Below are positions 12,169-61,645 of a DNA stretch of 64,000 nucleotides, in pieces (within the stretch, counting starts at the first letter, position 1; every line of letters starts with the position of its first letter). The notes under the pieces were generated by a model, which did no database searches, had not been told where the DNA came from, and saw only the letters and a list, made by a program, of their open reading frames with translations. Made by a program: the position numbers and the translations under genes. Source of the DNA: Patescibacteria group bacterium (GTDB lineage Bacteria; Patescibacteriota; Saccharimonadia; Saccharimonadales; JAZKJC01); contig JAZKJC010000005.1 in the NCBI GenBank assembly GCA_040384565.1, positions 12,796 to 76,795 of the forward strand. Direction: 5' to 3'.

Positions 12169-12552
12169 GGGGCTGAATTTAAGCTCGACGTTGGACTTTA
12201 ACGGTTAGATCAGCAGGTCGCTTGTCAGCGTATAGACGAACCCAAATAGTTGTAAAACTTTTTGATCGCGCAAAGACTTTTGTAGCGAGTGCTTTTGCAC
12301 CCGCCAAGTCTTTCGCAATAGCTTAAGTTACGACTTAAGCCGTGCCTGACATGACATCAGATAGTGCCAAGGTACGTCAAATCATCTGATTGCTCTAAGT
12401 GACTGATCCATAAACTTAGCTAAGATAATGGATTAACCTGTAAAACTTTTTGGTCATTTCTATGTTTTACAGAATTCAAATGACATATACCTGTAGGATA
12501 GACTAACCAGTTAAACTAGCGGACCCGGAGGCGGTATCCGGCAGCTCCTCCA
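12169..12552 (+). ncRNA. ssrA: tmRNA (SsrA)
   Basis: The 5' GGGGCTGAATTTAAGCTCGACG pairs with the 3' CAGCTCC, giving a G3:U wobble in a 7-bp acceptor stem. A T-arm-like CCGGAGGCGGTATCCGG is present and the 3' end is TCCA. An internal tag frame reads ...AKTFVASAFAPAKSFAIA-TAA. Confidence 0.85.
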
Positions 12553-19670: not shown

Positions 19671-20930
19671 ATGATGTTAGACATACCCAAGGAATTTGCT
19701 CGCAAATTTTGGCCAGGCAATGTAAAGCTTTCCGGCGCAGATGTGGCGCCGGCGCGTGATTACATTAATGCCTATTGGCACAAGTTGCAGCGCTCACATC
19801 CCAAAGACGACGAAAGTCTGGTGGGCCTGCCCCATCCTTATTTGGTGCCGGCTCATGAGGAAGGGCATGATTTTGATTTTAACGAGCTCTATTACTGGGA
19901 CAGCTATTTTATGGTCCAAGGCATGCTGGATGATCAGCACAAAGAACTAGTGATTGGGATTTTAAATAATTTGACATCACTGTTTAAGCGCTTTAAGGTA
20001 ATCCCAAATGCTTCACGAACCTATTTAACGGGGCGGTCGCAGCCGCCATTTTTAACCACATTTATTTGGGACATTTATAAAAGCTACGATCTGGATGAAA
20101 AATGGTTGACAACACACATGAAGATTGCCGAACAGGAATACGAAAGCGTCTGGATGGGCAAGACAAAGCCTAATGCAAGACAGGTTTTTCGGGGCTTGTC
20201 CCGTTACTACGATATTAACTTGCTTAATGATTTGGCAGAGGCAGAAAGCGGCTGGGATATGACACCACGATTTGGCCGCAAGGCTTTAAGTTTTGTGCCG
20301 GTTGATTTAAATGCATTGCTTTACAAGTACGAGGAAGACTTAGCAAAATATTACCGTTTGATTGACGATGTTCGCAGTGCTGCAAAGTGGGAAGTAGCTG
20401 CGGCGCACCGTAAAAAAACCATGAATGAACTGATGTGGAGCAACATACGTGGACTTTACTATGATTACAATTACGATAAGCAGCGCAGAGGTACAGTTAG
20501 TTCCTTGGCTGGCTTTTATCCGCTTTGGGCAGGCATGGCTACCAAAAAGCAAGCCGAGCAAATGGTCAAAGCCTTGCGGCGGTTTGAAAACCGTGGCGGT
20601 TTGGCTACAACCGATGTCCAACAACTTAGCCAATTTGTACCAGGCGCCATTCCAACTCAATGGGCATATCCCAACGGTTGGGCGCCTTTGCATCTTCTAA
20701 TTGTCCAAGGTCTGGAGCGCTATGGCTATCATGATGACGCCCGTCGAATCGCCATGAAATGGCTCAAAACCAACCTAAGTTGGTTTAACGAACATGGTGT
20801 ATTCCTAGAAAAGTATAATGTTGTTTCGCCAGACAAACCACCAGCCAAAGGCTTGTATCCTTCTCAAACCGGTTTTGGCTGGACAAACGCTGTTTTTGAA
20901 AGATTTTGTAAAGAGTATATAGACAAATGA
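19671..20930 (+). CDS. alpha,alpha-trehalase (GH37-like)
   Basis: LYYWDSYF and QWAYPNGWAPLH resemble the two trehalase signature regions. Confidence 0.8.
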   Translation: MMLDIPKEFARKFWPGNVKLSGADVAPARDYINAYWHKLQRSHPKDDESLVGLPHPYLVPAHEEGHDFDFNELYYWDSYFMVQGMLDDQHKELVIGILNNLTSLFKRFKVIPNASRTYLTGRSQPPFLTTFIWDIYKSYDLDEKWLTTHMKIAEQEYESVWMGKTKPNARQVFRGLSRYYDINLLNDLAEAESGWDMTPRFGRKALSFVPVDLNALLYKYEEDLAKYYRLIDDVRSAAKWEVAAAHRKKTMNELMWSNIRGLYYDYNYDKQRRGTVSSLAGFYPLWAGMATKKQAEQMVKALRRFENRGGLATTDVQQLSQFVPGAIPTQWAYPNGWAPLHLLIVQGLERYGYHDDARRIAMKWLKTNLSWFNEHGVFLEKYNVVSPDKPPAKGLYPSQTGFGWTNAVFERFCKEYIDK

Positions 20931-25648: not shown

Positions 25649-26482
25649 TTGCGAGAGTATATTTCATGGCAACGGCTATTTGCCTCTGCCACGCTATGCC
25701 TGCTAATTATTCTAAGTGCGGCACAGTCATTAAGCGCCCAGAATGTTACGTCTGGTTACGATTCAGATCAGCCTATTCAGCGAGGCATGATTGTACGTCT
25801 CAAAAAGGATGATGCAACCAAAGTTGAACCGGTTAACAAGGAGAACGCGGAACATATTCATGGCGTAGTAGTAAGTGCCAACGATGCCCCTTTGTCAATT
25901 GCAGTTGATGGTCAAAAAGTGTTTGTATCCAAAACCGGACGCTATGATGTGCTTGTTAGCTCTCAAAACGGTGCTATCAGCCAAGGTGATTACATCGCCG
26001 TATCAGCCTTTGCGGGAATAGGCATGAGAGCTGGCGACACTGAGCCCTACATCATAGGTCGGGCACTGGCGAACTTTAATGACAGTACGGATGTAGTCAG
26101 CACCAGCCAAGTCAAAGATAGTACTGGCGCAAACCGAGATATTAAGATTGGCCGAATATCCCTAGACATTGGAGTTGCCAAAAACCCCTTACTCAAAGGC
26201 TCCAAGGCAGACTTGCCGGAATTTTTACAAAAAGCTGCGACTACAGTTGCCGGCAAACCAGTAAATGCTGTTCGCGTTTATATAGGGATTTTGATTTTGG
26301 CAATAACCACGGTAGTAGCGGGTAGCCTTCTTTATGGAGGGGTGCGTAGCGCCCTAATTTCGATTGGGCGTAACCCGCTTAGTAGGAAATCAATTATACG
26401 AAGCATGTTCCAGGTTATTATTACTGGTTTAATTGTTTTCATTACCGGTGTTTTTGGAGTATATTTAATATTGAGATTATGA
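25649..26482 (+). CDS. secreted-domain protein with C-terminal ATP-synthase c-subunit-like TM hairpin (no carboxylate)
   Basis: Listed ORF 25478..26482. TTG 25649 gives a proper signal peptide (REYISWQRLFASATLCLLIILSAAQSLSA). The C-terminus GSLLYGGVRSALISIGRNPLSRKSIIRSMFQVIITGLIVFITGVFGVYLILRL resembles the c-subunit helix-RQP loop-helix. The gene sits directly upstream of atpF. Confidence 0.55.
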   Translation: MREYISWQRLFASATLCLLIILSAAQSLSAQNVTSGYDSDQPIQRGMIVRLKKDDATKVEPVNKENAEHIHGVVVSANDAPLSIAVDGQKVFVSKTGRYDVLVSSQNGAISQGDYIAVSAFAGIGMRAGDTEPYIIGRALANFNDSTDVVSTSQVKDSTGANRDIKIGRISLDIGVAKNPLLKGSKADLPEFLQKAATTVAGKPVNAVRVYIGILILAITTVVAGSLLYGGVRSALISIGRNPLSRKSIIRSMFQVIITGLIVFITGVFGVYLILRL

Positions 26483-26488
26483 GGACTT

Positions 26489-26626
26489 ATGTACTTGGCA
26501 CATTTTGATTCAAAAGCTGCGCTTCGCACCCCGCCTGTCTTTCTGACAGGACGGACAGGTCGCCGTACCTTAGAGTACGGCTCCCTTGTGATGCTCTCTT
26601 TTGAGCCAAACTGCGCTCAAGTACAT
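26489..26626 (+). promoter_or_regulatory. 138-nt structured leader upstream of atpF
   Basis: The closing helix atgtacttg/caagtacat is 9 bp and perfect. It encloses ttttga-n-tcaaaa, conserved hairpin copy 2, and the ccgtac/gtacgg hairpin. It ends 32 nt before the atpF ATG. Confidence 0.45.
26529..26562 (+). repeat. 34-nt conserved hairpin motif, copy 2
   Basis: ccccgcctgtctttctgacaggacggacaggtcg differs by one nucleotide from copy 1. Confidence 0.7.
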
Positions 26627-26658
26627 AGGTCCTAAAGTTAACTGGGGTGGGCGCATAA

Positions 26659-27826: not shown

Positions 27827-29346
27827 ATTCGGGCAACCAACACTTTGACAAACTAGTAGCTGCGGGCAACCCTGTTGGCGAAGTTGTAGCCGTAGATAAA
27901 TTCTTGCTGCGTGTAAGTGGGCTACAGCCCTGTAATGTTCATGCGCTAGTAATGTTTGAAGACGGTAGCAAGGGCTTTGTTCATCAAGTCAACGCCGATC
28001 ATGTAGTTGTGCTCCACCTGGGCAGCATAACTCTCCGCACCGGCATAGTCGCGGTCATCCAGCACCAAGAGCTTGTTTGTAAAGTTGGCAAAGATTTTAT
28101 TGGACGGGTTGTATCTGTCATGGGTGAGCCGCTTGACGGCAAAGGCCCTATCGCCGCGGACGCGATTTGGCCGGTATTTAATACGGCTCCACCACTCTAT
28201 ACCCGTAAACTGTTAGATACGCAGCTAGAGAGTGGCGTTACGGCTATAGACGCTTTATTCCCGGTCTTGCGCGGCCAACGTATGGCCCTGCTGGGTGATG
28301 GCAAGTCCGGCAAAAGCACGCTCGTAACCCAGCTGACCATTAACCAAAAAAACACTGATCAAATTGTTGTTTACGTACTAATTGCTAAACGTCGAAGCGA
28401 TATTGACACCTTGCTCACCAGTCTTCAGAAAAACGGAGGCATTGAAAAAGCTATCGTGGTGGTAAGTACCATGTTTGAATCGCTTATTATGAGCTATATT
28501 GCCCCTTACGTAGGTGTAGCCTTGGCGGAGTACTTATGGCAGCAGTTAGCCCAGGACACCATAATTATCTATGATGACCTCACTAGCCATGCCCATGCCT
28601 ACCGCGAAGTCGCCCTGATGTCAGGCGTTAGCCCTGGAAGAGACTCTTATCCGGGCGACATGTTCTACGCACATTCATCGCTTCTGGAAAGAGCAGGACG
28701 ACTGGACAGTAATGGCGCACACCTCACTAGTTTGCCACTGGTAAACGCGGCGGGTGGTGACATTACTGCTTATTTGCCAACTAATATCATGTCTATTACT
28801 GACGGCCAATGGATTTTGGATATGGATATTTTCCGCAATGGTATTCGCCCTGCCATTAATATTGGGCTTAGTGTTACGCGTGTTGGTGGAGTTGGCCACA
28901 ACAAGCGTCAAAAAGCATTGGCGGCTCAAACACTCAAAATGCTTGCTGATTACCGTCAGGCTGAAGAATTCTCCCACTTTGGCTCAGAACTTGCGTTGGA
29001 AGCTAAAAAAGCTTTGCAAACGGGTAAATATATTTTCGAGATGCTTACCCAAAGCCCATCAGATACATATTCACTAATAGCCCAACAGCTAATGCTTGAT
29101 ATTATTTTAAATATGGGTGACGGCGAAACTCTCGATATATCAGCCATGAAGCTCAATATCGTAGAATATGCCGCCAAGGTAACTGGTGATGATAATTACG
29201 AAAATATCAGAACCGAACTAAAATCTAAATCAGTAGTAGAGCTTAAAGGTGCCCCAAGCAAACCAACAACAGAGCTTGCAAAACCTGAAGAGCCACTAAC
29301 TAAATCCGAAGAAAAAGCCAAGAAGAAAGAAGAGGCTAAGAAATGA
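27823..29346 (+). CDS. atpA: ATP synthase F1 alpha subunit, divergent with Lys/Glu-rich C-terminal tail
   Basis: Walker [31 protein letters not shown] and ITDGQ motifs. Confidence 0.85.
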
Positions 29347-29353
29347 GCAAATT

Positions 29354-29418
29354 AGCTTACAGCTTACAGCTTACAGCTTACAGAGAAGAACTGTCTACCG
29401 TCTACTGTTTACTGTATG
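29354..29418. repeat. tandem heptamer arrays (AGCTTAC x4 perfect, then CYGTNTA x4)
   Basis: agcttac x4 at 29354-29381, followed by ctgtcta ccgtcta ctgttta ctgtatg at 29391-29418. Both lie in the atpA-atpG spacer. Confidence 0.85.
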
Positions 29419-29440
29419 CTTGCAGATCGGAGATCTGCCT

Positions 29441-30304
29441 ATGAAGCGGCCATCAGAAATAGAACGCGAAGAAATGGCTATGGGCACATTAGCCGAGTTA
29501 ACTAATGTGTTTGAGGGTATAGCCAGTATGCGCATAGCTCAGATTAAAAACCAAGTTTTGCAGGCGACACTCTTTTTCAACGAGCTCTGGGGTATTTACT
29601 CCCAATTAAAGGTAAGCGCTATTTTTGGCTTTGGACGTAATAATGCGGAGGTCGAGGTAAGTGATAAAGAACTTTATATTATTATCACAGCTGAGGGTGG
29701 CTTTAGTGGGGACATTGACCAAAAACTCATAACGCTTATGCTTAAAACATATGATCCCGCCAAAAACGAGATTATAGTAATTGGCCATCATGGAGCAATC
29801 CAGCTGGCACAGCGAAGCATCGCATATAAAAAGTACTTTAAATTGCCTACCAAGGATCAAAATATTAATGTATTGCCAATCATACGCGAAGTCCAACAGT
29901 ATAAGAACACTAGCGTGTTCTATCAGGAATATATCTCACTGATGGTTCAAGACGTAAAACGTATCGAACTTTCTAAGGCCGTTCAGCAAAAAGGCCAGCA
30001 GACAGAGGAGACCGATGATATCATAAGCGAAGCAAACTATATTTTTGAGCCAAGCACATATGACGTCGTTGACCACCTTGAGAGGTCTATGATGAATATT
30101 GCTATGAGCCAGTTGATTCTGGATTCAAAGCTGGCTCAATATGCTTCAAGATTTCGGGCCATGAGTGCCTCTAACCAAAGAGCCAACGAAGCCAAAACTG
30201 ACCTTCACCTAGACTATAATCGTGCCAGGAGGGCAATTAAAGACGAACGTTTGAAAGAAATCATCAACAGTATCAAAAAAAGCAGAGCGAGCGCATCAGT
30301 ATGA
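29441..30304 (+). CDS. atpG: ATP synthase F1 gamma subunit
   Basis: N-terminal ...GIASMRIAQ and C-terminal ASNQRANEAKTDLHLDYNRARRAIKDERLKEII fit the gamma pattern. ATG 29441 is preferred within listed ORF 29420..30304. Confidence 0.8.
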   Translation: MKRPSEIEREEMAMGTLAELTNVFEGIASMRIAQIKNQVLQATLFFNELWGIYSQLKVSAIFGFGRNNAEVEVSDKELYIIITAEGGFSGDIDQKLITLMLKTYDPAKNEIIVIGHHGAIQLAQRSIAYKKYFKLPTKDQNINVLPIIREVQQYKNTSVFYQEYISLMVQDVKRIELSKAVQQKGQQTEETDDIISEANYIFEPSTYDVVDHLERSMMNIAMSQLILDSKLAQYASRFRAMSASNQRANEAKTDLHLDYNRARRAIKDERLKEIINSIKKSRASASV

Positions 30305-30361
30305 AAAATAAATACAATTTCACATTTTCCAAACAAGTTTCAGGCCATCGTCTTATCTGGC

Positions 30362-31739
<1,378 letters not shown>

Positions 31740-31745
31740 CGAGAT

Positions 31746-31777
31746 ACGTAGAACGTATAACGTATAACGTAGTACGG
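31746..31777 (+). repeat. heptamer array ACGTAKA x4.5, 5' arm of an outer hairpin enclosing A2
   Basis: acgtaga acgtata acgtata acgtagt acgg. The segment cgtataacgtagtacgg pairs with cctactacgttatacg at 31958-31973. Confidence 0.75.
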
Positions 31778-31794
31778 TTGAAACCAAGCCGTTA

Positions 31795-31957
31795 TATACC
31801 CATGATAAGCCACTTTTCGGTTTTTAGGGTTAAAGTTTTATGAGTCAGAAGTTTTTGAAATTTTATCAGCGTACCGGTAGTACGGTTATTAAATTTCGGG
31901 AAGTTCTGGCTATAAAAGGCGAGTCTAAGAGCCGGAAAGTGGTTTATCATGGGTATA
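31795..31957 (+). repeat. Family-A long imperfect palindrome, copy A2
   Basis: TATACCCATGATAAGCCACTTTTCGG...CCGGAAAGTGGTTTATCATGGGTATA. The outer arms pair with 24 Watson-Crick pairs and 2 G:U (hand count). It lies between atpD and atpC. Confidence 0.85.
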
Positions 31958-31983
31958 CCTACTACGTTATACGTACTACGACC
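31958..31983 (+). repeat. 3' arm of the outer heptamer hairpin flanking A2
   Basis: cctactacgttatacgtactacgacc is complementary to the 31761-31777 array units. Confidence 0.7.
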
Positions 31984-31999
31984 ATTCGGGGCTCATGTT

Positions 32000-32305
32000 A
32001 TGGCTGATCCGGTAAAAGAACCATCATCAGATTCCAGACCATCTACGCCTACTGGTGATGGCAAGCACATGCATGTTAAGGTCTATGCGCCATTTAAGGT
32101 CTATTTTGATGGCCAGGCAGAAAGCATTTCAGCCGAAAACGATACCGGACCATTCGATATATTAGCCGGTCACCATAACTTCATGACGCTGCTGAGCGCC
32201 GGTGAAATAACGGTGCGTAATGAAGGCAAAGAAGAAAAGATAAAGATAAACCATGGCATAATGCACGTAAAAAAAGACGAAGTCGTGGTCTTTCTGGATG
32301 TCTAA
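32000..32305 (+). CDS. atpC: ATP synthase F1 epsilon subunit (beta-sandwich domain only)
   Basis: VKVYAPFKVYFDGQAESISAENDTGPFDILAGHHNFMTLLSAGEITV fits the epsilon N-domain. ATG 32000 is chosen because the longer ORF start lies inside repeat A2. Confidence 0.75.
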   Translation: MADPVKEPSSDSRPSTPTGDGKHMHVKVYAPFKVYFDGQAESISAENDTGPFDILAGHHNFMTLLSAGEITVRNEGKEEKIKINHGIMHVKKDEVVVFLDV

Positions 32306-33470: not shown

Positions 33471-33639
33471 TTAATAGACTCCTTCCGGAATAAAAACCCC
33501 GATGAAAAAACGAGGATTTTTGTTCCAAAGTTTTCAATAATTCGTAAAGCGTATCTGGATACGGTTTACGAATTTTGGGAAGTTTGGGGTAAAAAGGACG
33601 TTTTTTGGCGGGGGAGTTATTCCGGAAGGAGTCTAATAT
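33471..33639 (+). repeat. Family-B long imperfect palindrome, copy B1
   Basis: The perfect 19-bp termini are tagactccttccggaataa / ttattccggaaggagtcta. The interior pairs with several U:G wobbles on the plus strand. Mirror-image ORFs on both strands are an artefact of the palindrome. Confidence 0.8.
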
Positions 33640-41404: not shown

Positions 41405-41567
41405 CATACCCATGATAAACCACTTTCCGGCTCTTAGACTCGCCTTTTATAGCCAGAACTTCCCGAAATTTAATAACCGTACTACCGGTACGCTGATAAA
41501 ATTTCAAAAACTTCTGACTCATACAACATCAACCCTAAAAACCGAAAAGCAATTTATCATGGGTATA
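41405..41567 (-). repeat. Family-A long imperfect palindrome, copy A3 (inverted relative to A2)
   Basis: The reverse complement of 41406-41523 is identical to 31839-31956 (118 nt, hand alignment). The remaining arm differs but still pairs through five G:U wobbles on the minus strand. Confidence 0.85.
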
Positions 41568-42649: not shown

Positions 42650-43831
42650 ATGAAAACAGTGTATGTTGGGATGAGTGGTGGGGTGGATAGCTCTGTGACG
42701 GCGGCTTTGCTTAAAGAGCAGGGGTATACAGTTGTGGGCGTGTATATGAAAAACTGGAGCCAGGACTTGCCGGGCATGCCATGTACATGGAAAGAGGATT
42801 ATCAGGATGCTAAGCGGGTGGCCGTGCAGCTTGGTATTGACTTTAAGGTGTATGATTTTGAAAAGCAGTACCGGCATAAGGTTGTGAACTATATGCTTAA
42901 CGAGTACAAAGCTGGTCGTACCCCAAACCCTGACATAATGTGCAACCAGGAGATCAAATTCAAACTTTTTTTAGAAACCGCTCTCGAGGATGGCGCGGAC
43001 TTGATTGCCACCGGGCACTACGCCCGGATAGGACGAGCAATGAGCCATGAGCAACGAGCAAAGAACGAAAAGGGGGCTGATTCGTTGCTCACTGCTCACT
43101 GCTCACTGCTCACGGCAGCCAACAAAGAGAAAGACCAGACTTATTTTTTGTATAGGGTAACTAAAGAAGCGCTGTCAAAAAGTCTAATGCCTATAGGAGA
43201 ATTTGAGACTAAAAATGAAGTCAGACTGTTGGCTAAAAAAATGGGCCTGGCTACGGCGGATAAAAAAGACAGTCAGGGGATTTGCTTTGTCGGAAAGGTC
43301 GGTATCAAAGATTTCTTGCTGCATGAGCTGGGGCCTCAACCAGCTGGTGCCATTCTGAATCAGAACGGCCAAGAAATTGGCGAACACGACGGAGCGATAT
43401 TTTATACTATTGGTCAGCGACACGGTTTGGATGTTGGGGGCGGTTTGCCGTATTACGTGGTTGGAAAAGATATGTCAAAGAATCAAGTATTCGTCACGAC
43501 TGACTTGCAGGATGAAAAGCTCTGGCAGGACACCTTGAATCTTACGGATGTACACTGGATCAGTGGTGAGCCTTTAGCTCTGAGCAATGAGCAAAGAGCA
43601 ATCCATTCGACAAGCTCAGGACACGTGAGCAATGAGGGACTACAGGTTCGGACTCGTTATAGGGCTCCATTGGTGAGAGCTACGCTACAGGTGGTGACTT
43701 CTAGCGCCAAAAATAGCGAAACCACGCTACAGGTAGTGTTGTCTGATCAAGTCCGTGCCGTAACCCCGGGTCAGTCAGCAGTTATATATGCTGGCGAGCA
43801 GGTACTTGGCGGCGGCATAGTCTTATATTAA
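42650..43831 (+). CDS. mnmA: tRNA-specific 2-thiouridylase
   Basis: PP-loop GMSGGVDSS, plus TGHYAR, KDQTYFL, DSQGICF and TPGQSAV motifs. It contains two heptamer-repeat insertions (see repeats). Confidence 0.9.
   Translation: MKTVYVGMSGGVDSSVTAALLKEQGYTVVGVYMKNWSQDLPGMPCTWKEDYQDAKRVAVQLGIDFKVYDFEKQYRHKVVNYMLNEYKAGRTPNPDIMCNQEIKFKLFLETALEDGADLIATGHYARIGRAMSHEQRAKNEKGADSLLTAHCSLLTAANKEKDQTYFLYRVTKEALSKSLMPIGEFETKNEVRLLAKKMGLATADKKDSQGICFVGKVGIKDFLLHELGPQPAGAILNQNGQEIGEHDGAIFYTIGQRHGLDVGGGLPYYVVGKDMSKNQVFVTTDLQDEKLWQDTLNLTDVHWISGEPLALSNEQRAIHSTSSGHVSNEGLQVRTRYRAPLVRATLQVVTSSAKNSETTLQVVLSDQVRAVTPGQSAVIYAGEQVLGGGIVLY
43035..43113 (+). repeat. Family-C heptamer palindrome, copy C1, in-frame inside mnmA
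   Basis: Arm gagcaat gagccat gagcaac gagcaaa gaacgaa, loop aagggggctga, arm ttcgtt gctcact gctcact gctcact gctcac. It is translated as RAMSHEQRAKNEKGADSLLTAHCSLLTA. Confidence 0.75.
43582..43636 (+). repeat. Family-C heptamer array, copy C2 (direct units only), in-frame inside mnmA
   Basis: gagcaat gagcaaa gagcaat at 43582-43602, and gagcaatgag again at 43627-43636. It is translated as SNEQRAI...VSNEG. Confidence 0.6.
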
Positions 43832-48239: not shown

Positions 48240-49550
48240 ATGCTTGATAAGATAAAGAGAATTCCTGGCTCTGCCGCAGCTTTTGCTAAAAGCAAGAAAA
48301 AGAATAAAAAAGCTGGCTCAACGCAATATATGGTTGCGCTGGATATTGGGACGGAGTTTGTAAAAGCTTTAGTAGCCAAAGTAGAGGGCGACAAGTTATC
48401 AATCATTGGTGTTGGCCGTAAGCGCCAAGGATTAACAGACATGCAAGCAGGTGCTATTTCTGACATTGCTGGTGTGGTAAAAAACTGTGACGCAGCCTTA
48501 AACGAGGCTGAACAGCAGGCTGGTGTAAGTGTCCGGACGGCTATTATAGGCATAGCCGGAGAACTAGTAAAAGGCACAACTACAACGGTGAGAGTACGGC
48601 GCAAAAACCCAAGCAAACAGCTGGATATGGAAGAAACCGAACAGATTATCGGCTTGGTGCAAGAACGGGCTCAGATTAAAGCCAAACAACAACTTGCCTG
48701 GGAGCTGGGCGGTAAGGATGTTGAGATACGGCTTGTTAACAGTGCGCTAGTGCGGATTGACATTGATGGATATCCGGTAACAAACCCGATTGGGTTCCAG
48801 GGTAAAGAAGTCATGGTGCAGCTCTACACCGCCTTTGCTCCGCTAATTCACATCGGCGCTCTGGAACGCACGGCTCAAGAACTGGATATGGATCTCATCG
48901 CCGTAGCGGCTGAGCCTTTCGCAGTGGCCCGCTCGGTCATTGGTAACGAACAAGACGCTAGTATGAACGCAGTGCTGATGGACGTGGGCGGTGGAACTAC
49001 CGATATAGCCGTATTACAGGACGGTGGTGTCCAAGGAACTAAGATGTTTGGTATTGGCGGGCGGGCATTTACACGTGCAATCGAGCGTGAAATGAGTGTT
49101 CCATTTAAACAAGCCGAAGATTACAAGCTGGCATACGGTGCGCACCATGTAACCGCTGCCCAAGGCACTGCAATCAAGCACGCGCTAGATAAAACTCTTG
49201 ATGTATGGATAAGCGGTATTGAACTAGCTCTAGGTGAATTTACCATGAATGATCACTTGCCTAATCAGCTTTTACTTTGCGGCGGTGGTTCTTCGCTTGA
49301 TATGCTGATGGAGAAGCTCGAACAAGGCAGTTGGTACCGGGAGCTGCCATTTACCAAACGCCCAATAGTACAGCATATCCAACCAGAAGATGTCGTAGGT
49401 ATTACAGATAAAACCGGGGCGGTAGATGACCACACATTTATTACGGCAATGGGGCTACTAAGAGTAGGATTAGACACTCTGCAAATGCAGACTGGCTCTG
49501 AAACCACGGGCAGCATAAAGCAGCGACTAAACAGGATGTTACAGATATGA
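48240..49550 (+). CDS. ftsA: cell-division protein FtsA (actin-like ATPase)
   Basis: ALDIGTEFVKALV and DVGGGTTDIAV phosphate-binding motifs, with an overall FtsA layout. Confidence 0.8.
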   Translation: MLDKIKRIPGSAAAFAKSKKKNKKAGSTQYMVALDIGTEFVKALVAKVEGDKLSIIGVGRKRQGLTDMQAGAISDIAGVVKNCDAALNEAEQQAGVSVRTAIIGIAGELVKGTTTTVRVRRKNPSKQLDMEETEQIIGLVQERAQIKAKQQLAWELGGKDVEIRLVNSALVRIDIDGYPVTNPIGFQGKEVMVQLYTAFAPLIHIGALERTAQELDMDLIAVAAEPFAVARSVIGNEQDASMNAVLMDVGGGTTDIAVLQDGGVQGTKMFGIGGRAFTRAIEREMSVPFKQAEDYKLAYGAHHVTAAQGTAIKHALDKTLDVWISGIELALGEFTMNDHLPNQLLLCGGGSSLDMLMEKLEQGSWYRELPFTKRPIVQHIQPEDVVGITDKTGAVDDHTFITAMGLLRVGLDTLQMQTGSETTGSIKQRLNRMLQI

Positions 49551-49669
49551 TAACAGCTAAGAGTAATGAGCTAAGAGCAATGAGCAATGAGTTTTTGGTT
49601 GCAGTTGAAGCCAAATCACTGCTCACTGCTCACTGCCCACTGCTCACTTTGTCGGGAGAGAAGCTATGA
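49547..49669 (+). CDS. 40-codon mini-ORF formed by Family-C element C3, ATGA-coupled at both ends
   Basis: MITAKSNELRAMSNEFLVAVEAKSLLTAHCPLLTLSGEKL. Its ATG overlaps the ftsA TGA and its TGA overlaps the next gene's ATG. It uses the same heptamer reading phase as C1 in mnmA. Confidence 0.35.
   Translation: MITAKSNELRAMSNEFLVAVEAKSLLTAHCPLLTLSGEKL
49559..49648 (+). repeat. Family-C heptamer palindrome, copy C3
   Basis: Arm gagtaat gagctaa gagcaat gagcaat gag, loop of about 24 nt, arm tcactgc tcactgc tcactgc ccactgc tcact. Each unit pairs 6 of 7 with one A:C, which would be G:U on the minus strand. Confidence 0.8.
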
Positions 49670-51354
49670 GCGGTACGGCGAAAGATACCATCTATATTGA
49701 TCCAGAAGATGAGATAACAGGCATCATTGAAAAGGTCAGAAGCTCCGAGTCCAAGATTGTGGCTCTGGTACTGCCCAAGCGGGCTACTTCTTTGCAGTCA
49801 ATCGTTAATCTCAAGCTTTTAAAGCGGACAACAAGCGAAGCAAAAAAGAACTTAGTGCTAATTACTTCTGATGCGGCACTCATGCCAATAGCGGGTGCAG
49901 TCGGTTTGCATGTTGCTAAGACGCTTCAAAGCAAGCCAGTAGTACCGGTGGCTCCTAAGCTTAACACCAGCCCGGAAACTATAGATGATGAAACTCCATT
50001 GCTGGATGAAGATGTCCCACTGGATCCTCACGCTTCAATTGGACAATTAGCGGGGCATGTTGCCGCGGAAGAGACTATTGAGTTGGATAATGACACCAAA
50101 GCGGAGGTTGCGGCTGGGGCTGAGGGCTCAAAAGCTGTATCGGGTAAAAAATCATTAAGCAAGAAGTTAAAAGTCCCTAATTTTGATCGTTTTAGGCTGC
50201 TAATATTCGCGGGCGCAGGGCTACTGGTGTTACTTATTGTCGGTAGTATATTTGCGTTCATTATTCTTCCCAAAGCCAAAATAACTATCAAAACCGATAC
50301 ATCAAACGTAAGTACCGACATTGTCATTACCGGTAAGACTGACGCCAAAGAGGTGGATGCCAAGCAGCTAATTCTGCCTGCGACCAACAAAGAGCTAAAA
50401 AAAGTTGAGGTGGAAAAAGTTCCGGCAACAGGGCAACGAGACGAGGGTACAAAAGCCACAGGAACGGTCACGCTCACCAACTGTTATAAAGAAGAAGAAA
50501 GTGTAACCATACCAGCAGGAAGCGTGCTGAGTACTAGCGCCAATGGGACTGCCTACGCGTTTTTAACTAACGAATCCGTAACTATTCCGCAAAGTAACTT
50601 TACTGGCACCGGAGTTTGCAAGAATGATTCATTTAAAAATGTTAATGTAACGGCCCAAGCGGCCGGAGGCCAGTATAATTTGAGCGCTAAACGTACTTTT
50701 AGTATCTCCGTATCTGGTGTAAGCGGTACTGACAGTAGTGCTATGGCCGGCGGCACCAGTAAAATTGTGCAAATAGTCAGTCAGGGCGATGTAGACAATG
50801 CCAAACAAAAAGCCATAGACAGGATGAATAGCGCGGCAACCAACGAATTAAAAACGCAATTTGAGTCTGAAAAATTCCAACCTCTAGCTGAAACCTTTGC
50901 AGCGGGTACCCCGGCGGTTACAAGTATGCCCAACGTTAATGATCCCGCAAGCGAGGTAGCTGTAACCGTAACTATCGTTTATAAAGAATTTGGAGTCAAA
51001 CAAGATGATCTGAAGCAGATAGTTGAGGAAGACATAAAAAAGCAAATTGATACCAGCAAACAAACTATCCAGGATAATGGTTTGCAAAAAGCAGAATTAA
51101 GAGTTACTGACAAAAAGCCCGTAGAAGTAAAGTTTAACTATAAATCCATAGCTGTGGCCGGGCCCCAGCTTGACGGTGAGGGTATCAAAAAACAGATTGC
51201 AGGCAAGAAAAAAGGAGAAACAGTCAGGCTAATACAAGAACGACCAGGTATCAGGGATGTAGAAATAAATTATAGTCCTTTCTGGGTATTCTCTACTCCC
51301 AAAAGCACCAAAAAGATAACCATAACTTTTGACCAAAACAATGTCAAAAACTAA
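49666..51354 (+). CDS. hypothetical bitopic membrane protein
   Basis: 562 aa with a cytoplasmic N-domain, a TM helix (LLIFAGAGLLVLLIVGSIFAFIIL) and a large Thr/Val-rich external domain. Confidence 0.55.
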   Translation: MSGTAKDTIYIDPEDEITGIIEKVRSSESKIVALVLPKRATSLQSIVNLKLLKRTTSEAKKNLVLITSDAALMPIAGAVGLHVAKTLQSKPVVPVAPKLNTSPETIDDETPLLDEDVPLDPHASIGQLAGHVAAEETIELDNDTKAEVAAGAEGSKAVSGKKSLSKKLKVPNFDRFRLLIFAGAGLLVLLIVGSIFAFIILPKAKITIKTDTSNVSTDIVITGKTDAKEVDAKQLILPATNKELKKVEVEKVPATGQRDEGTKATGTVTLTNCYKEEESVTIPAGSVLSTSANGTAYAFLTNESVTIPQSNFTGTGVCKNDSFKNVNVTAQAAGGQYNLSAKRTFSISVSGVSGTDSSAMAGGTSKIVQIVSQGDVDNAKQKAIDRMNSAATNELKTQFESEKFQPLAETFAAGTPAVTSMPNVNDPASEVAVTVTIVYKEFGVKQDDLKQIVEEDIKKQIDTSKQTIQDNGLQKAELRVTDKKPVEVKFNYKSIAVAGPQLDGEGIKKQIAGKKKGETVRLIQERPGIRDVEINYSPFWVFSTPKSTKKITITFDQNNVKN

Positions 51355-51760
51355 CATTTTGGCGCTTGATGTTGGTACCAAAAGGGTTGGAGTAGCTCTA
51401 GCCCGTGCTGCTGTTCGAGTGCCCGTCGCGCTGGAGACCTTGGATCGACAAAGTCCTGACTTCTGGGACCAATTAAAAAAACTTACGACTGAGCACGGTA
51501 TAAGCCAGCTTATAGTTGGTCTGCCCCGTGGACTTAATGGGCAGGAAACAGCCCAAACCAGAGACGTAATTACGTTTGCTGAAAGGCTTAAAAAACAAAT
51601 AGCTCTGCCAATAGTCTGGCAAGACGAAGCACTTACCTCCGTCAAAGCCGAATCTGTATTGAATAACGGGAAACCCTACCAAAAAAGTCAGGTTGACGCT
51701 TTAGCTGCCTGCTTTATACTGGCAGATTACCTGGAGGGAGAGGAAGTCGCATTATTATGA
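51341..51760 (+). CDS. ruvX: Holliday-junction resolvase-like RuvX/YqgF
   Basis: ILALDVGTKRVGVAL and LPRGLNGQET motifs. ATG 51341 is preferred within listed ORF 51329..51760. Confidence 0.8.
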   Translation: MSKTNILALDVGTKRVGVALARAAVRVPVALETLDRQSPDFWDQLKKLTTEHGISQLIVGLPRGLNGQETAQTRDVITFAERLKKQIALPIVWQDEALTSVKAESVLNNGKPYQKSQVDALAACFILADYLEGEEVALL

Positions 51761-52821
51761 AAAGATATGCAGTCGGTGCTTCAAGACGACGTTGGTCAAG
51801 AATTTGGCTAGGTCTTCTTATGATAACTTTGGTAGTAGCTGGGGCGACTGTTTTTATGGTTAGACGATCATATAACCAGAACTTACGTCCTATCAGCGCG
51901 TCGGAGCGAGCAGTAGTGGTTACAGTTAAACCTGGCTCTACGGTACAGGACATAGCCAAACAACTGCAGGAGCAAGGGATTATTCGTTCCTCATGGGCTT
52001 TTGAATGGTACGTGCGCATTAATGATCTGCGCGATCGCCTGCAAGCTGGCACATATTCGTTGCGTCCAAGCCAAAGCATACAAGATATAGCTAGTATTCT
52101 GACTCACGGTAAAGTAAATGTCAGCCAGGTAACAATATTCCCCGGCAAGAGAATTGATCAGGTAAGAGAATCTCTAATTAATGATGGTTTTTCGCCGGAG
52201 TCAGTTGACGCAGCCTTGGAGCCGGGCCAATACGCTGATAGTCCGGCACTATCCGATAAGCCCAAAAACGCAAACTTGGAAGGTTATTTATATCCGGAAA
52301 CATTCCAAAAAACGGCTGATACTAAACCAGAAACAATTATTAGGGCCTCATTAGACGAAATGCACACATACCTGTCACCAGAAATTCGAGCGGGCATAGC
52401 CAGGCAAGGTTTGACAGTGCATCAGGGGGTGATCTTGGCCTCTATAATTGAACGAGAGGTTGGCAATCCTGTGGACAGGCCAAAGGTGGCACAAATTTTT
52501 CTAAAAAGAATTAAATCTGACATAGCCTTAGAATCAGATGCGACGGCTGGCTATGGTGCCATACTGGCAGGGGCAGAGCCCAGTATTTTCTATGAATCTG
52601 CTTACAATACCTATAAAAACAAAAATCTTCCACCCGGCCCTATTAGCAATGTTACCAAAACAAGTCTAGAGGCAGTCGCAAACCCAGCTATGACCGATTT
52701 TCTGTACTTTGTATCTGGGGATGATAATGAAAACGGTGTATCAATAACGTATTTTTCTAAAACGTTGCCAGAACATGAAGCGAATGTCTCGGCACATTGC
52801 CGTAAAAAATGCGGACGATAG
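51757..52821 (+). CDS. mltG: endolytic murein transglycosylase MltG (YceG-like)
   Basis: N-terminal TM helix. EGYLYPETF, ASIIEREV and YNTYKNKNLPPGPISN motifs. Confidence 0.85.
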   Translation: MKRYAVGASRRRWSRIWLGLLMITLVVAGATVFMVRRSYNQNLRPISASERAVVVTVKPGSTVQDIAKQLQEQGIIRSSWAFEWYVRINDLRDRLQAGTYSLRPSQSIQDIASILTHGKVNVSQVTIFPGKRIDQVRESLINDGFSPESVDAALEPGQYADSPALSDKPKNANLEGYLYPETFQKTADTKPETIIRASLDEMHTYLSPEIRAGIARQGLTVHQGVILASIIEREVGNPVDRPKVAQIFLKRIKSDIALESDATAGYGAILAGAEPSIFYESAYNTYKNKNLPPGPISNVTKTSLEAVANPAMTDFLYFVSGDDNENGVSITYFSKTLPEHEANVSAHCRKKCGR

Positions 52822-52824
52822 TAA

Positions 52825-52985
52825 TAGACTTCTTCTAAAACCCCACCTTACCAATACCAATTTTCAGGGCAATCCGTTAGTTTTCTGTCTCAAATAGTAG
52901 CCACGGCTACAATTTGAGCCATAAAACCACCAGCTTACTCCTGAAAATAGCTATTGCCAACAGATGGGGTTTTAGAAGAAGTCTA
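52825..52985. repeat. Family-B long imperfect palindrome, copy B2
   Basis: The termini tagacttcttctaaaacccca / tggggttttagaagaagtcta form a 21-bp perfect pairing. The apex is ctcaaatagtagcc-acg-ggctacaatttgag. It starts 4 nt after the mltG stop. Confidence 0.8.
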
Positions 52986-52998
52986 ATATTTTTTACAG

Positions 52999-55788: not shown

Positions 55789-55946
55789 TATACCTTAGCA
55801 GAAATTGGTTTTCGGGGTTGATGATTTCCTGGTCAGAAGTTTCTGAAATTTTATCAGCATATCCTTTGGTATGGTTATCAAATTTCGGGAAGTTCTGGCT
55901 GGAAAGGACAAGTCAAAAAGTCGGAAAGTAGTTTCTGTTGGGTATA
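55789..55946 (+). repeat. Family-A long imperfect palindrome, copy A4
   Basis: It starts at the base after the obg TAG. The termini are tataccttagcagaaattgg... / ...tagtttctgttgggtata. It shares the internal blocks attttatcagcata and ggttatcaaatttcgggaagttctgg. Confidence 0.8.
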
Positions 55947-55955
55947 TGCTAGACT
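55947..55955 (+). promoter_or_regulatory. extended -10 box TGcTAGACT, 6 nt before the sbcB ATG
   Basis: tgctagact is followed by ggctgc and then ATG 55962. It lies immediately after the right end of A4. Confidence 0.45.
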
Positions 55956-55961
55956 GGCTGC

Positions 55962-61423: not shown

Positions 61424-61474
61424 GTAGATAAGTATACGGTACCAGGCAAACTACTGGCATTTTACTCTGTTTTT

Positions 61475-61483
61475 TGGTACAAT
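61475..61483 (+). promoter_or_regulatory. extended -10 box TGgTACAAT directing transcription into A5 and uvrA
   Basis: tggtacaat ends 1 nt before the left end of A5. The predicted start site falls in the A5 terminal repeat. Confidence 0.45.
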
Positions 61484-61484
61484 C

Positions 61485-61645
61485 CATTACCATGATAAAT
61501 TGCTTTTCGGGTTTTCAGGCTTGATGATTTTTGTCCCAGATCTTCCAGAATTTGCGGAGCATATCTGGATATGTGTAGCAAATTATGGAAGATCTGGGAC
61601 AAAAAGGGCAAGTCTGGAAAGCGAAAAGTAGTTTATTATGGGGAT
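61485..61645 (+). repeat. Family-A long imperfect palindrome, copy A5 (divergent interior)
   Basis: The termini cattaccatgataaattgcttttcg / cgaaaagtagtttattatggggat are conserved. The interior tttttgtcccagatcttccagaatttgc / gcaaattatggaagatctgggacaaaaa is unrelated to A1-A4 yet fully self-complementary. Confidence 0.75.

Follow-up and report, generated by a model that had tools for sequence, protein, structure and literature searches.

A heptamer-array hairpin at the ATGA junction downstream of ftsA in Saccharimonadales is probably an insertion tolerated as a translational relay

The 64,000-nt stretch of a Saccharimonadales (Patescibacteria) genome analysed here (contig JAZKJC010000005.1, positions 12,796 to 76,795; hereafter the window) carries, between an ftsA-like gene and a gene for a 562-amino-acid (aa) protein, a hairpin element, C3, with arms of tandem GAGCAAT-type heptamers and a 40-codon mini open reading frame (ORF) that overlaps both neighbouring genes by ATGA. 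We consider it probable that C3 is an insertion at the ATGA junction that is tolerated only while it can be translated and relays the coupling between the two genes. On the sequences compared, its origin is best read as an insertion, specific to the lineage, into an ATGA junction by which ftsA was ancestrally coupled to its partner. The argument that the array is kept translatable and coupled is drawn from recurrence at ftsA junctions and at three other junctions of the window, and not from C3 alone.

The upstream cistron (48240..49550; this and all other features of the locus lie on the plus strand) encodes a 436-aa protein that matches the Pfam family FtsA PF14450 with an E value of 2.8e-15, and its homologues are named in the sources as FtsA or FtsA-domain proteins of Saccharimonadales/Patescibacteria. 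Its TGA (49548-49550) is part of the left copy of TATGA (49546..49550), in which the ftsA stop overlaps the ATG of the mini-ORF (49547-49549, context atATGAta; ATGA at 49547-50), and the original Shine-Dalgarno-like AGGA is retained within the 3′ end of ftsA at this copy. The mini-ORF (49547..49669) stays open for 40 codons and closes on a TGA (49667-69, context ctATGAgc) that overlaps the ATG (49666-68) of the downstream cistron (49666..51354), this second ATGA (49666-69) belonging to the right copy of TATGA (49665..49669). The two TATGA copies form a putative target-site duplication. The original prediction, made from the letters of the window, had described a 40-codon frame overlapped by ATGA with ftsA and with the next gene; its coordinates and both overlaps were verified, and the frame is also predicted by a gene caller on the Logan contig L001. 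The 40-aa product reads MITAKSNELRAMSNEFLVAVEAKSLLTAHCPLLTLSGEKL, with AMSNEFLVAVEAK and SLLTAHCPLLTLSGEK as its predicted tryptic peptides. Across the C3 spacer the mini-ORF frame is free of stop codons, vs 3 and 5 stops in the other two sense frames.

The spacer from ftsA to the 562-aa gene measures 115 nt and is nearly all hairpin. The left arm (49554..49591) is made up of cAGCTAA, GAGTAAT (49561), GAGCTAA (49568), GAGCAAT (49575), GAGCAAT (49582) and a final GAG, part of which is accounted for by a 14-nt duplication. It is followed by a 24-nt loop (49592..49615) with a small inner stem, TTGGTTGC...GCCAAA, and by a right arm (49616..49648) of TCA, (CTGCTCA)2, CTGCCCA, CTGCTCA and CT that is stop-free in every sense frame. 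A 17-nt tail after the right arm reads CTTTGTCGGGAG and holds a Shine-Dalgarno-like GGGAGAG (49654..49660) that ends 5 nt before the downstream ATG. Tandem Repeats Finder detects period-7 repeats of 4.4 and 4.7 copies in C3, and GAGCAATGAGCAAT occurs 11 times in the window with ≤2 mismatches, vs 0.58 expected. The predicted fold reaches -39.3 kcal/mol (z -2.5) on the plus strand and -45.5 kcal/mol (z -4.5) on the minus strand, the latter being the stronger because A:C mismatches on the plus strand turn into G:U pairs on the minus strand, as had been pointed out from the letters.

Comparison with relatives distinguishes filled from empty sites. The sample of 73 distinct orthologous ftsA/partner junctions draws on 80 metagenomic loci, on locus L046 from a DNA scan of a genome collection, and on four loci from an exact-protein look-up; in the metagenome scan a single FtsA query gave no relatives, and the query from alignment A1 gave the 80 loci. 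The spacer ranges across these loci from a 4-nt overlap to 284 nt. In 29 of the 73 the ftsA stop lies within ATGA: 19 of these show a direct overlap with the partner gene, and all of the remaining 10 carry an insert. [quoted passage not shown]

Among the closest relatives, L134, L135 and L136 (FtsA 82-83% identical) have an empty site, ...caaatATGAgc..., with a 4-nt gene overlap, as compared with the filled site in the window, ...cagatATGA[115 nt]ATGAgc..., and L133 (FtsA 86.6% identical) has at the same position a different hairpin with AGTATTTCGT-type units. Conservation of the mini-ORF in relatives, which had been proposed as a check, thus does not hold, and one outcome named beforehand as speaking against the idea, a spacer variable or missing in close relatives, is what is seen. 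Because the relatives have either an empty site or another insert, C3 is a hot-spot insertion rather than a spacer under conservation. L001, the one further contig that carries the C3 locus, is identical in sequence, and Logan sample SRR26324625 is the other sample in which this contig is known. A GAGCAAT/CTGCTCA hairpin resembling C3 is present in L046 (FtsA 80.6% identical), where the first ORF meets an in-frame TGA at codon 9 (after 8 codons) that itself lies in caATGAgc; from this internal ATGA a 29-codon ORF starts and runs to the downstream ATGA. C3 and L046 agree in their arms, in their first nine bases (ATGAyAACA) and in a length of 29 codons counted from the internal ATG, whereas the loops and tails are unrelated (loop identity ~33% by a count made by eye). 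The two may go back to common descent or to independent insertions, relatives closer to the window by FtsA identity having an empty site (L134-L136) or another insert (L133). The C3 loop is likewise unrelated in sequence to that of C1, a heptamer hairpin in mnmA described below.

The downstream protein matches no family in Pfam or NCBIfam. It is laid out as an N-terminal domain, a predicted membrane segment and a large C-terminal part, and its gene is adjacent to and co-oriented with ftsA in every orthologous locus in which both are detectable; this gene and its orthologues (L046, L053-L136) often overlap ftsA by ATGA. Possibly the 562-aa protein acts with FtsA in division, as an uncharacterised partner in this lineage.

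The evidence that carries the argument is the recurrence of relay frames. At 12 of the 13 independent insert-bearing ftsA junctions of Saccharimonadales, an ORF or an ATGA-linked chain of ORFs leads from the ftsA stop to the downstream start, under a rule that accepts an ATG from -2 to +9 nt of the first base of the stop and a final stop within -9 to +12 of the start, chains being allowed. Shuffled inserts (dinucleotides preserved, flanks and length fixed, and judged by the rule applied to the real data) give an expectation of 1.0 relay among the 13, and the Poisson-binomial P for at least 12 is 2.7e-15. The relay ORFs end on or within a few bases of the partner start, usually at a second ATGA, and in AT-rich inserts (26-31% GC) the relay frame contains no stops, against 4-7 in the other sense frames. 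In 10 of 16 cases (P = 0.016) the distance between the two ATGs is 2 mod 3, the value that places the left ATG in frame with the right TGA and that a double-ATGA relay requires. In an unbiased scan of the 47 same-strand spacers of ≥70 nt from the fetched Saccharimonadales loci and the window, relays were found in 10 of the 13 spacers with an ATG at the upstream stop (1.1 expected), and in 1 of the 34 without one. A GGAG, GAGG or AGGA core stands 9-13 nt before the downstream start in 9 of the 11 heptamer or repeat-hairpin inserts examined.

Three further junctions of the window, all on the plus strand, show the same arrangement. At 29343..29444 a 33-codon relay ORF proceeds from ATGA through an (AGCTTAC)n/(ACTGTCT)n hairpin and GGAGA to a second ATGA, and at 30301..30435 a 44-codon relay ORF proceeds from ATGA through an (AAATGAT)n array and AGGAG to GTGA. 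The (AAATGAT)n array inside this ORF (30362-30411) forms no hairpin and has an ATGA in each unit. A two-step relay at 31736..32007, made of ORFs 31736-31843 and 31840-32007 that share an internal ATGA, crosses (ACGTATA)n arrays on either side of a nested MITE and closes with ATGGCTGA across the start codon that follows; its shuffle frequency is 0.0005.

Wherever two units of (GAGCAAT)n or (GAGCAGT)n meet, a stop and a start overlap as ATGA or GTGA, and the complementary (CTGCTCA)n arm contains no stop in any frame. Besides C3, the window has two related arrays in mnmA (42650-43831), both in frame and on the plus strand: C1 (43035..43113), a heptamer hairpin of the GAGCAAT family after GHYARI, and C2 (about 43575..43640), a shorter GAGCAAT block after HWISGEP. 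The unit that falls in the phase GAG CAA TGA is altered in all three arrays (43049, GAG CAA Cga; 43589, GAG CAA Aga; 49568, GAG CTA Aga), exactly as noted beforehand, vs only one of seven units in other phases of the same arrays; in C3 it is unit 49568 that is in this phase and lacks the junction TGA. That the arrays, the intergenic one included, are kept translatable is a claim of the original prediction that stands through the recurrence across junctions, and not through this pattern: C1 and C2 are free of in-frame stops because both sit inside mnmA, an essential gene, and C3 taken singly is within chance. A further point made there, that C1 and C3 share a phase and a peptide likeness (RAMSxE and SLLTAHC), is uninformative, since 7 and 3 are coprime and every frame of any heptamer array gives the same 7-residue cycle.

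C1 and C2, unlike C3, are in-frame palindromic inserts in a conserved gene that are absent from orthologues, although C1 is present in the relative L137, which lacks C2. Alignment A2 places them at two fixed insertion hot spots of MnmA, after GHYAR(I/V) and HWINGEP, which accept many different inserts; these are often repeat-encoded and account for the variation in MnmA length (343 to 403 aa in Saccharimonadales), and basal homologues of 343-355 aa are without both. Within the coding region of C1, the stop-removing T-to-C change (43049-43055) is paired with a compensatory A-to-G in the partner unit (43084-43090). The paired units are GAGCAAC/GTTGCTC in the window and GAGCAAC/GCTGCTC in L137, so that on these sequences the hairpin arms appear to be kept as a pair; the paired changes would fit either structural selection or template-directed correction of quasi-palindromes.

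In the mechanism that we propose, a hairpin element with heptamer-array arms would have inserted into the ATGA overlap that coupled ftsA to its downstream partner. The left ATGA copy would still terminate ftsA and still offer the old start with its AGGA, and ribosomes initiating or re-initiating at the left ATG would read 40 codons through the hairpin and stop at the right copy, whose TGA overlaps the true downstream start. The operon would thus be translated continuously, which would keep the ~-39 kcal/mol hairpin melted and would permit termination-reinitiation at the second ATGA, with the GGAG-type motif of the tail (GGGAG in C3) adding a route for de novo initiation. Variants with an in-frame stop or of the wrong length would be selected against, and we propose this as the reason why the mutation falls in the phase-0 heptamer. 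The peptide would itself be functionless and the mini-ORF a disposable relay.

Several considerations weigh against this account of C3. C3 on its own yields a relay in 14% of its dinucleotide shuffles (frequency 0.14), which is within chance, and the relay rule is a lenient one. A heptamer hairpin that follows a TAA stop in L091 has stops in all frames, and the MITE at 26482-26633 in the window has no relay ORF, its frame closing after 9 codons. We infer, rather than observe, that the mini-ORF is translated, that what selection favours is coupling and not protection against RNase III or polarity, and by what route the element moves or arises. Because the downstream gene has a Shine-Dalgarno-like motif of its own, coupling may be unneeded and the benefit may be a different one. 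Similarly, the heptamer arms are all that the copies have in common, there being no core, and a mobile element's insertion is therefore not proven over local generation of a hairpin.

The MITE at 26482-26633 is a strongly folding inverted repeat, AGGACTTATGTACTTG...CAAGTACATAGGTCCT, right after an ATGA stop, and a junction at 20928 likewise has an ATGA stop with no relay after it, an exception to the relay rule. Classification of C3 as a classical MITE with a conserved core was rejected, C1, C3 and L046 sharing the heptamer arms only; the arms of C3 are inverted repeats and ATGA is duplicated, but the left arm abuts the ATGA and 17 nt of tail follow the right arm. The duplicated ATGA could be supplied by the element itself. 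No insertion sequence with ends matching C3 was seen within the window.

An alternative is that the functional unit is the hairpin, be it a sense or antisense structured RNA, a DNA cruciform or a site bound by protein, with the open frame as a by-product. The superior fold of the minus-strand RNA speaks for such a role, as do the retention of the arms between the window and L046 with loop and tail randomised, the matched A-to-G partner of the stop-removing change of C1 in both the window and L137, and the occurrence of same-heptamer hairpins in many phyla and in all kinds of intergenic regions. Against this, Rfam at gathering score gives no match in the window for C3, and a permissive scan of C3 returns only sub-threshold matches of ~20 bits to generic eukaryotic microRNA hairpins; no promoter-like or terminator-like site is found on either strand of 49550-49665; the strand preference of folding is inconsistent across insert families, none showing through as systematic; and a structural role alone leaves the stop-free relay frame unexplained. 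We therefore hold this alternative to be unlikely as the explanation of the open frame, although a functional hairpin and a translated relay are not exclusive and both can hold. The suggestion that C3 might form an antisense RNA structure found no specific support in the promoter scan, in Rfam or in the strand preference. An intrinsic terminator or attenuator was considered and rejected, there being no terminator-like site in 49550-49665 and a tail reading CTTTGTCGGGAG.

The distribution of the heptamer beyond Saccharimonadales bears on a broader possibility, namely that heptamer-hairpin arrays are widespread, undescribed, translation-transparent elements of operon junctions, in which the ribosome would hop by termination-reinitiation from any frame into the open one. 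L046 is a literal case of such a hop, by way of its internal ATGA into the one open frame. The pattern GAGCAATGAG-N15-45-CTGCTCACTGC occurs in 51 contigs of species-representative genomes, vs an estimated ~8 by chance, and the matches come from Acidobacteriota (many of them Pyrinomonadaceae), Chloroflexota, Bacteroidota, Patescibacteria and others; loci L002-L052 are mostly intergenic hairpins of (GAGCAGT)n with (ACTGCTC)n, and Pyrinomonadaceae are especially rich in them. The flanking genes of the matches are oriented ++ in 11 cases, -- in 11, -+ in 12 and +- in 6, with ~5 chance matches inside genes, and thus no orientation bias relative to flanking genes exists among the 51. A cross-phylum relay by design, as a general property of the family, was rejected on this ground, and because the cross-phylum hairpins lack such a bias, the relay is a context-dependent outcome. 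The shared unit may reflect horizontal spread or convergence, either being possible. We give the translation-transparent reading only an outside chance; if it were true, slippage of units (7 = 1 mod 3) would reversibly tune downstream coupling.

A related proposal, that C3 is a slippage switch in which gain or loss of a 7-nt unit breaks or restores the relay and so tunes downstream expression, strikes us as decidedly improbable. Heptamer arrays readily undergo slippage (Mrazek 2007, summarised in PMC4679880), the left arm of C3 contains the 14-nt duplication, and relay frames depend on length mod 3; but no length polymorphism is seen, L001 being identical, the arrays are already degenerate and, at 2-4 perfect units, short, and the flanking genes are core division genes. 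Coincidence, by which one frame happens to be open and the ATGA motifs are merely the ends of the flanking genes, is very improbable as well. The shuffle frequency of C3 favours it, as does a P of ~0.06 for finding the left-arm region's seven stop codons all in the other two frames, but relays at 12 of 13 independent ftsA-junction inserts and at three other junctions of the window (combined P ~3e-15) refute it as a general account. Least credible is a genuine small-protein gene whose 40-aa peptide would function, for example, in cell division, since for all its ATGA coupling in a division operon and its prediction by a gene caller, HMMER against 1.84 billion representatives recovers only the peptide itself and two long repetitive proteins, Pfam and NCBIfam have no match for it, the closest relatives lack the ORF, L133 having an unrelated ORF in its place and L046 a split one, and the peptide is mostly set by the heptamer DNA, with the same residues inside MnmA; a conserved mini-gene or micropeptide family was rejected accordingly, the peptide being neither conserved in relatives nor part of a protein family.

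The reading of C3 as a tolerated relay has its closest precedent in MIRUs, the interspersed repetitive units of mycobacteria (Supply et al. 1997, in the accounts of PMC12548453 and PMC3184786). In these descriptions, MIRUs are short intra-operon repeats, co-oriented with the genes and inserted at start codons, with filled and empty sites and 4-nt direct repeats; the ends of the MIRU ORF overlap the upstream stop and the downstream start with a -4 spacing, which is thought to minimise the effect on expression. C3 similarly lies between co-oriented operon genes and in their orientation, with no promoter- or terminator-like site in the spacer, a 40-codon stop-free ORF with ATGA at 49547-50 and 49666-69, empty sites in L134-136 and (T)ATGA on both sides of the filled site. 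MIRUs differ in being GC-rich, ~40-100 bp long, conserved in sequence, often tandem (as variable-number tandem repeats) and found in Actinobacteria, whereas C3 is a single hairpin with arms of 7-nt arrays and no common core, in Patescibacteria. By this analogy C3 would work like a MIRU, and it is not claimed to be one; homology in sequence is implausible.

The palindromic elements of Rickettsia (RPEs; Ogata et al. 2000, reviewed in PMC10969869) are, in that account, palindromic in-frame inserts in protein genes that add a peptide segment, which is what C1 and C2 do in mnmA. RPEs are there described as families of ~105-150 bp with a conserved encoded peptide, whereas the copies described here have only the heptamer arms in common. 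C3 differs also in being intergenic rather than intragenic.

Arrays of heptanucleotides known as short tandemly repeated repetitive (STRR) sequences were reportedly described in cyanobacteria by Mazel and colleagues in 1990. TAACTGA repeats occur in Beggiatoaceae, Cyanobacteria and Bacteroidetes (PMC4679880). Both resemble C3 in their tandem 7-nt units, their intergenic location close to start codons, their patchy distribution across phyla, the absence of a known mobilising enzyme and the restriction of their location by consequences for reading frames. The TAACTGA arrays are direct repeats without predicted structure that present stops in forward orientation, whereas the C3 arms are complementary and one frame is open, and both the unit sequence and the paired-arm layout of C3 are distinct from the units described (PMC4679880). 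A likeness of function exists to the short 'delivery' ORFs that are reviewed, together with termination-reinitiation coupling at ATGA overlaps, in PMC12548453: they share the -4 stop/start overlap, and the sole role of such an ORF is to bring the ribosome to the next start and to neutralise RNA structure. Taken as a delivery ORF, that of C3 differs in being created by an insertion and in being itself the structured segment. Full-text literature searches found no description of a complementary-heptamer-array hairpin without a conserved core in Patescibacteria.

Other elements of the window were recorded in passing. Positions 12169-12552 on the plus strand are a probable transfer-messenger RNA (Rfam RF00023, 43 bits, E 8.7e-16), which the gathering-threshold scan missed because the score is just below the gathering score of 47, and which ARAGORN missed too. 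A MITE family of ~160 bp is represented in opposite orientations at 31795-31957 and 41406-41566, with ends TATACCCATGATAA(G/A)CCACTTT... and a terminal inverted repeat that itself contains ATGA; the copy at 31795 is nested in an (ACGTATA)n heptamer hairpin, and degenerate copies were recognised by eye near 140-330, 55790-55960 and 61430-61620. A second, MITE-like family (33472-33638 and 52822-52988) has the ends TAATAGACT(C/T)CTTC...GAAG(G/A)AGTCTAATA, and its copy at 52822 begins right after the stop of a YceG/MltG-like gene (51757-52821). Two palindromes of 38 nt, near-perfect and with arms 2 nt apart, TTTTTGTCCCAGATCTTCCA..., occur at 61528-61605, which is intergenic, and at 33518-33595, inside the MITE-like element 33472-33638.

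Taken as a relay, C3 would extend the MIRU principle, by which a repeat hides as a coupled mini-ORF, to another phylum and another kind of repeat. At least 12 unrelated small inserts would have entered one 4-base stop/start overlap independently, nearly all of them surviving as bridging frames, which would make these junctions a natural experiment on the strength of selection for continuous translation across operon junctions in the ultra-small Patescibacteria. It would follow that such mini-ORFs should not be annotated as small proteins, and that the variation in length of proteins such as MnmA in these lineages would consist largely of translated repeat inserts.

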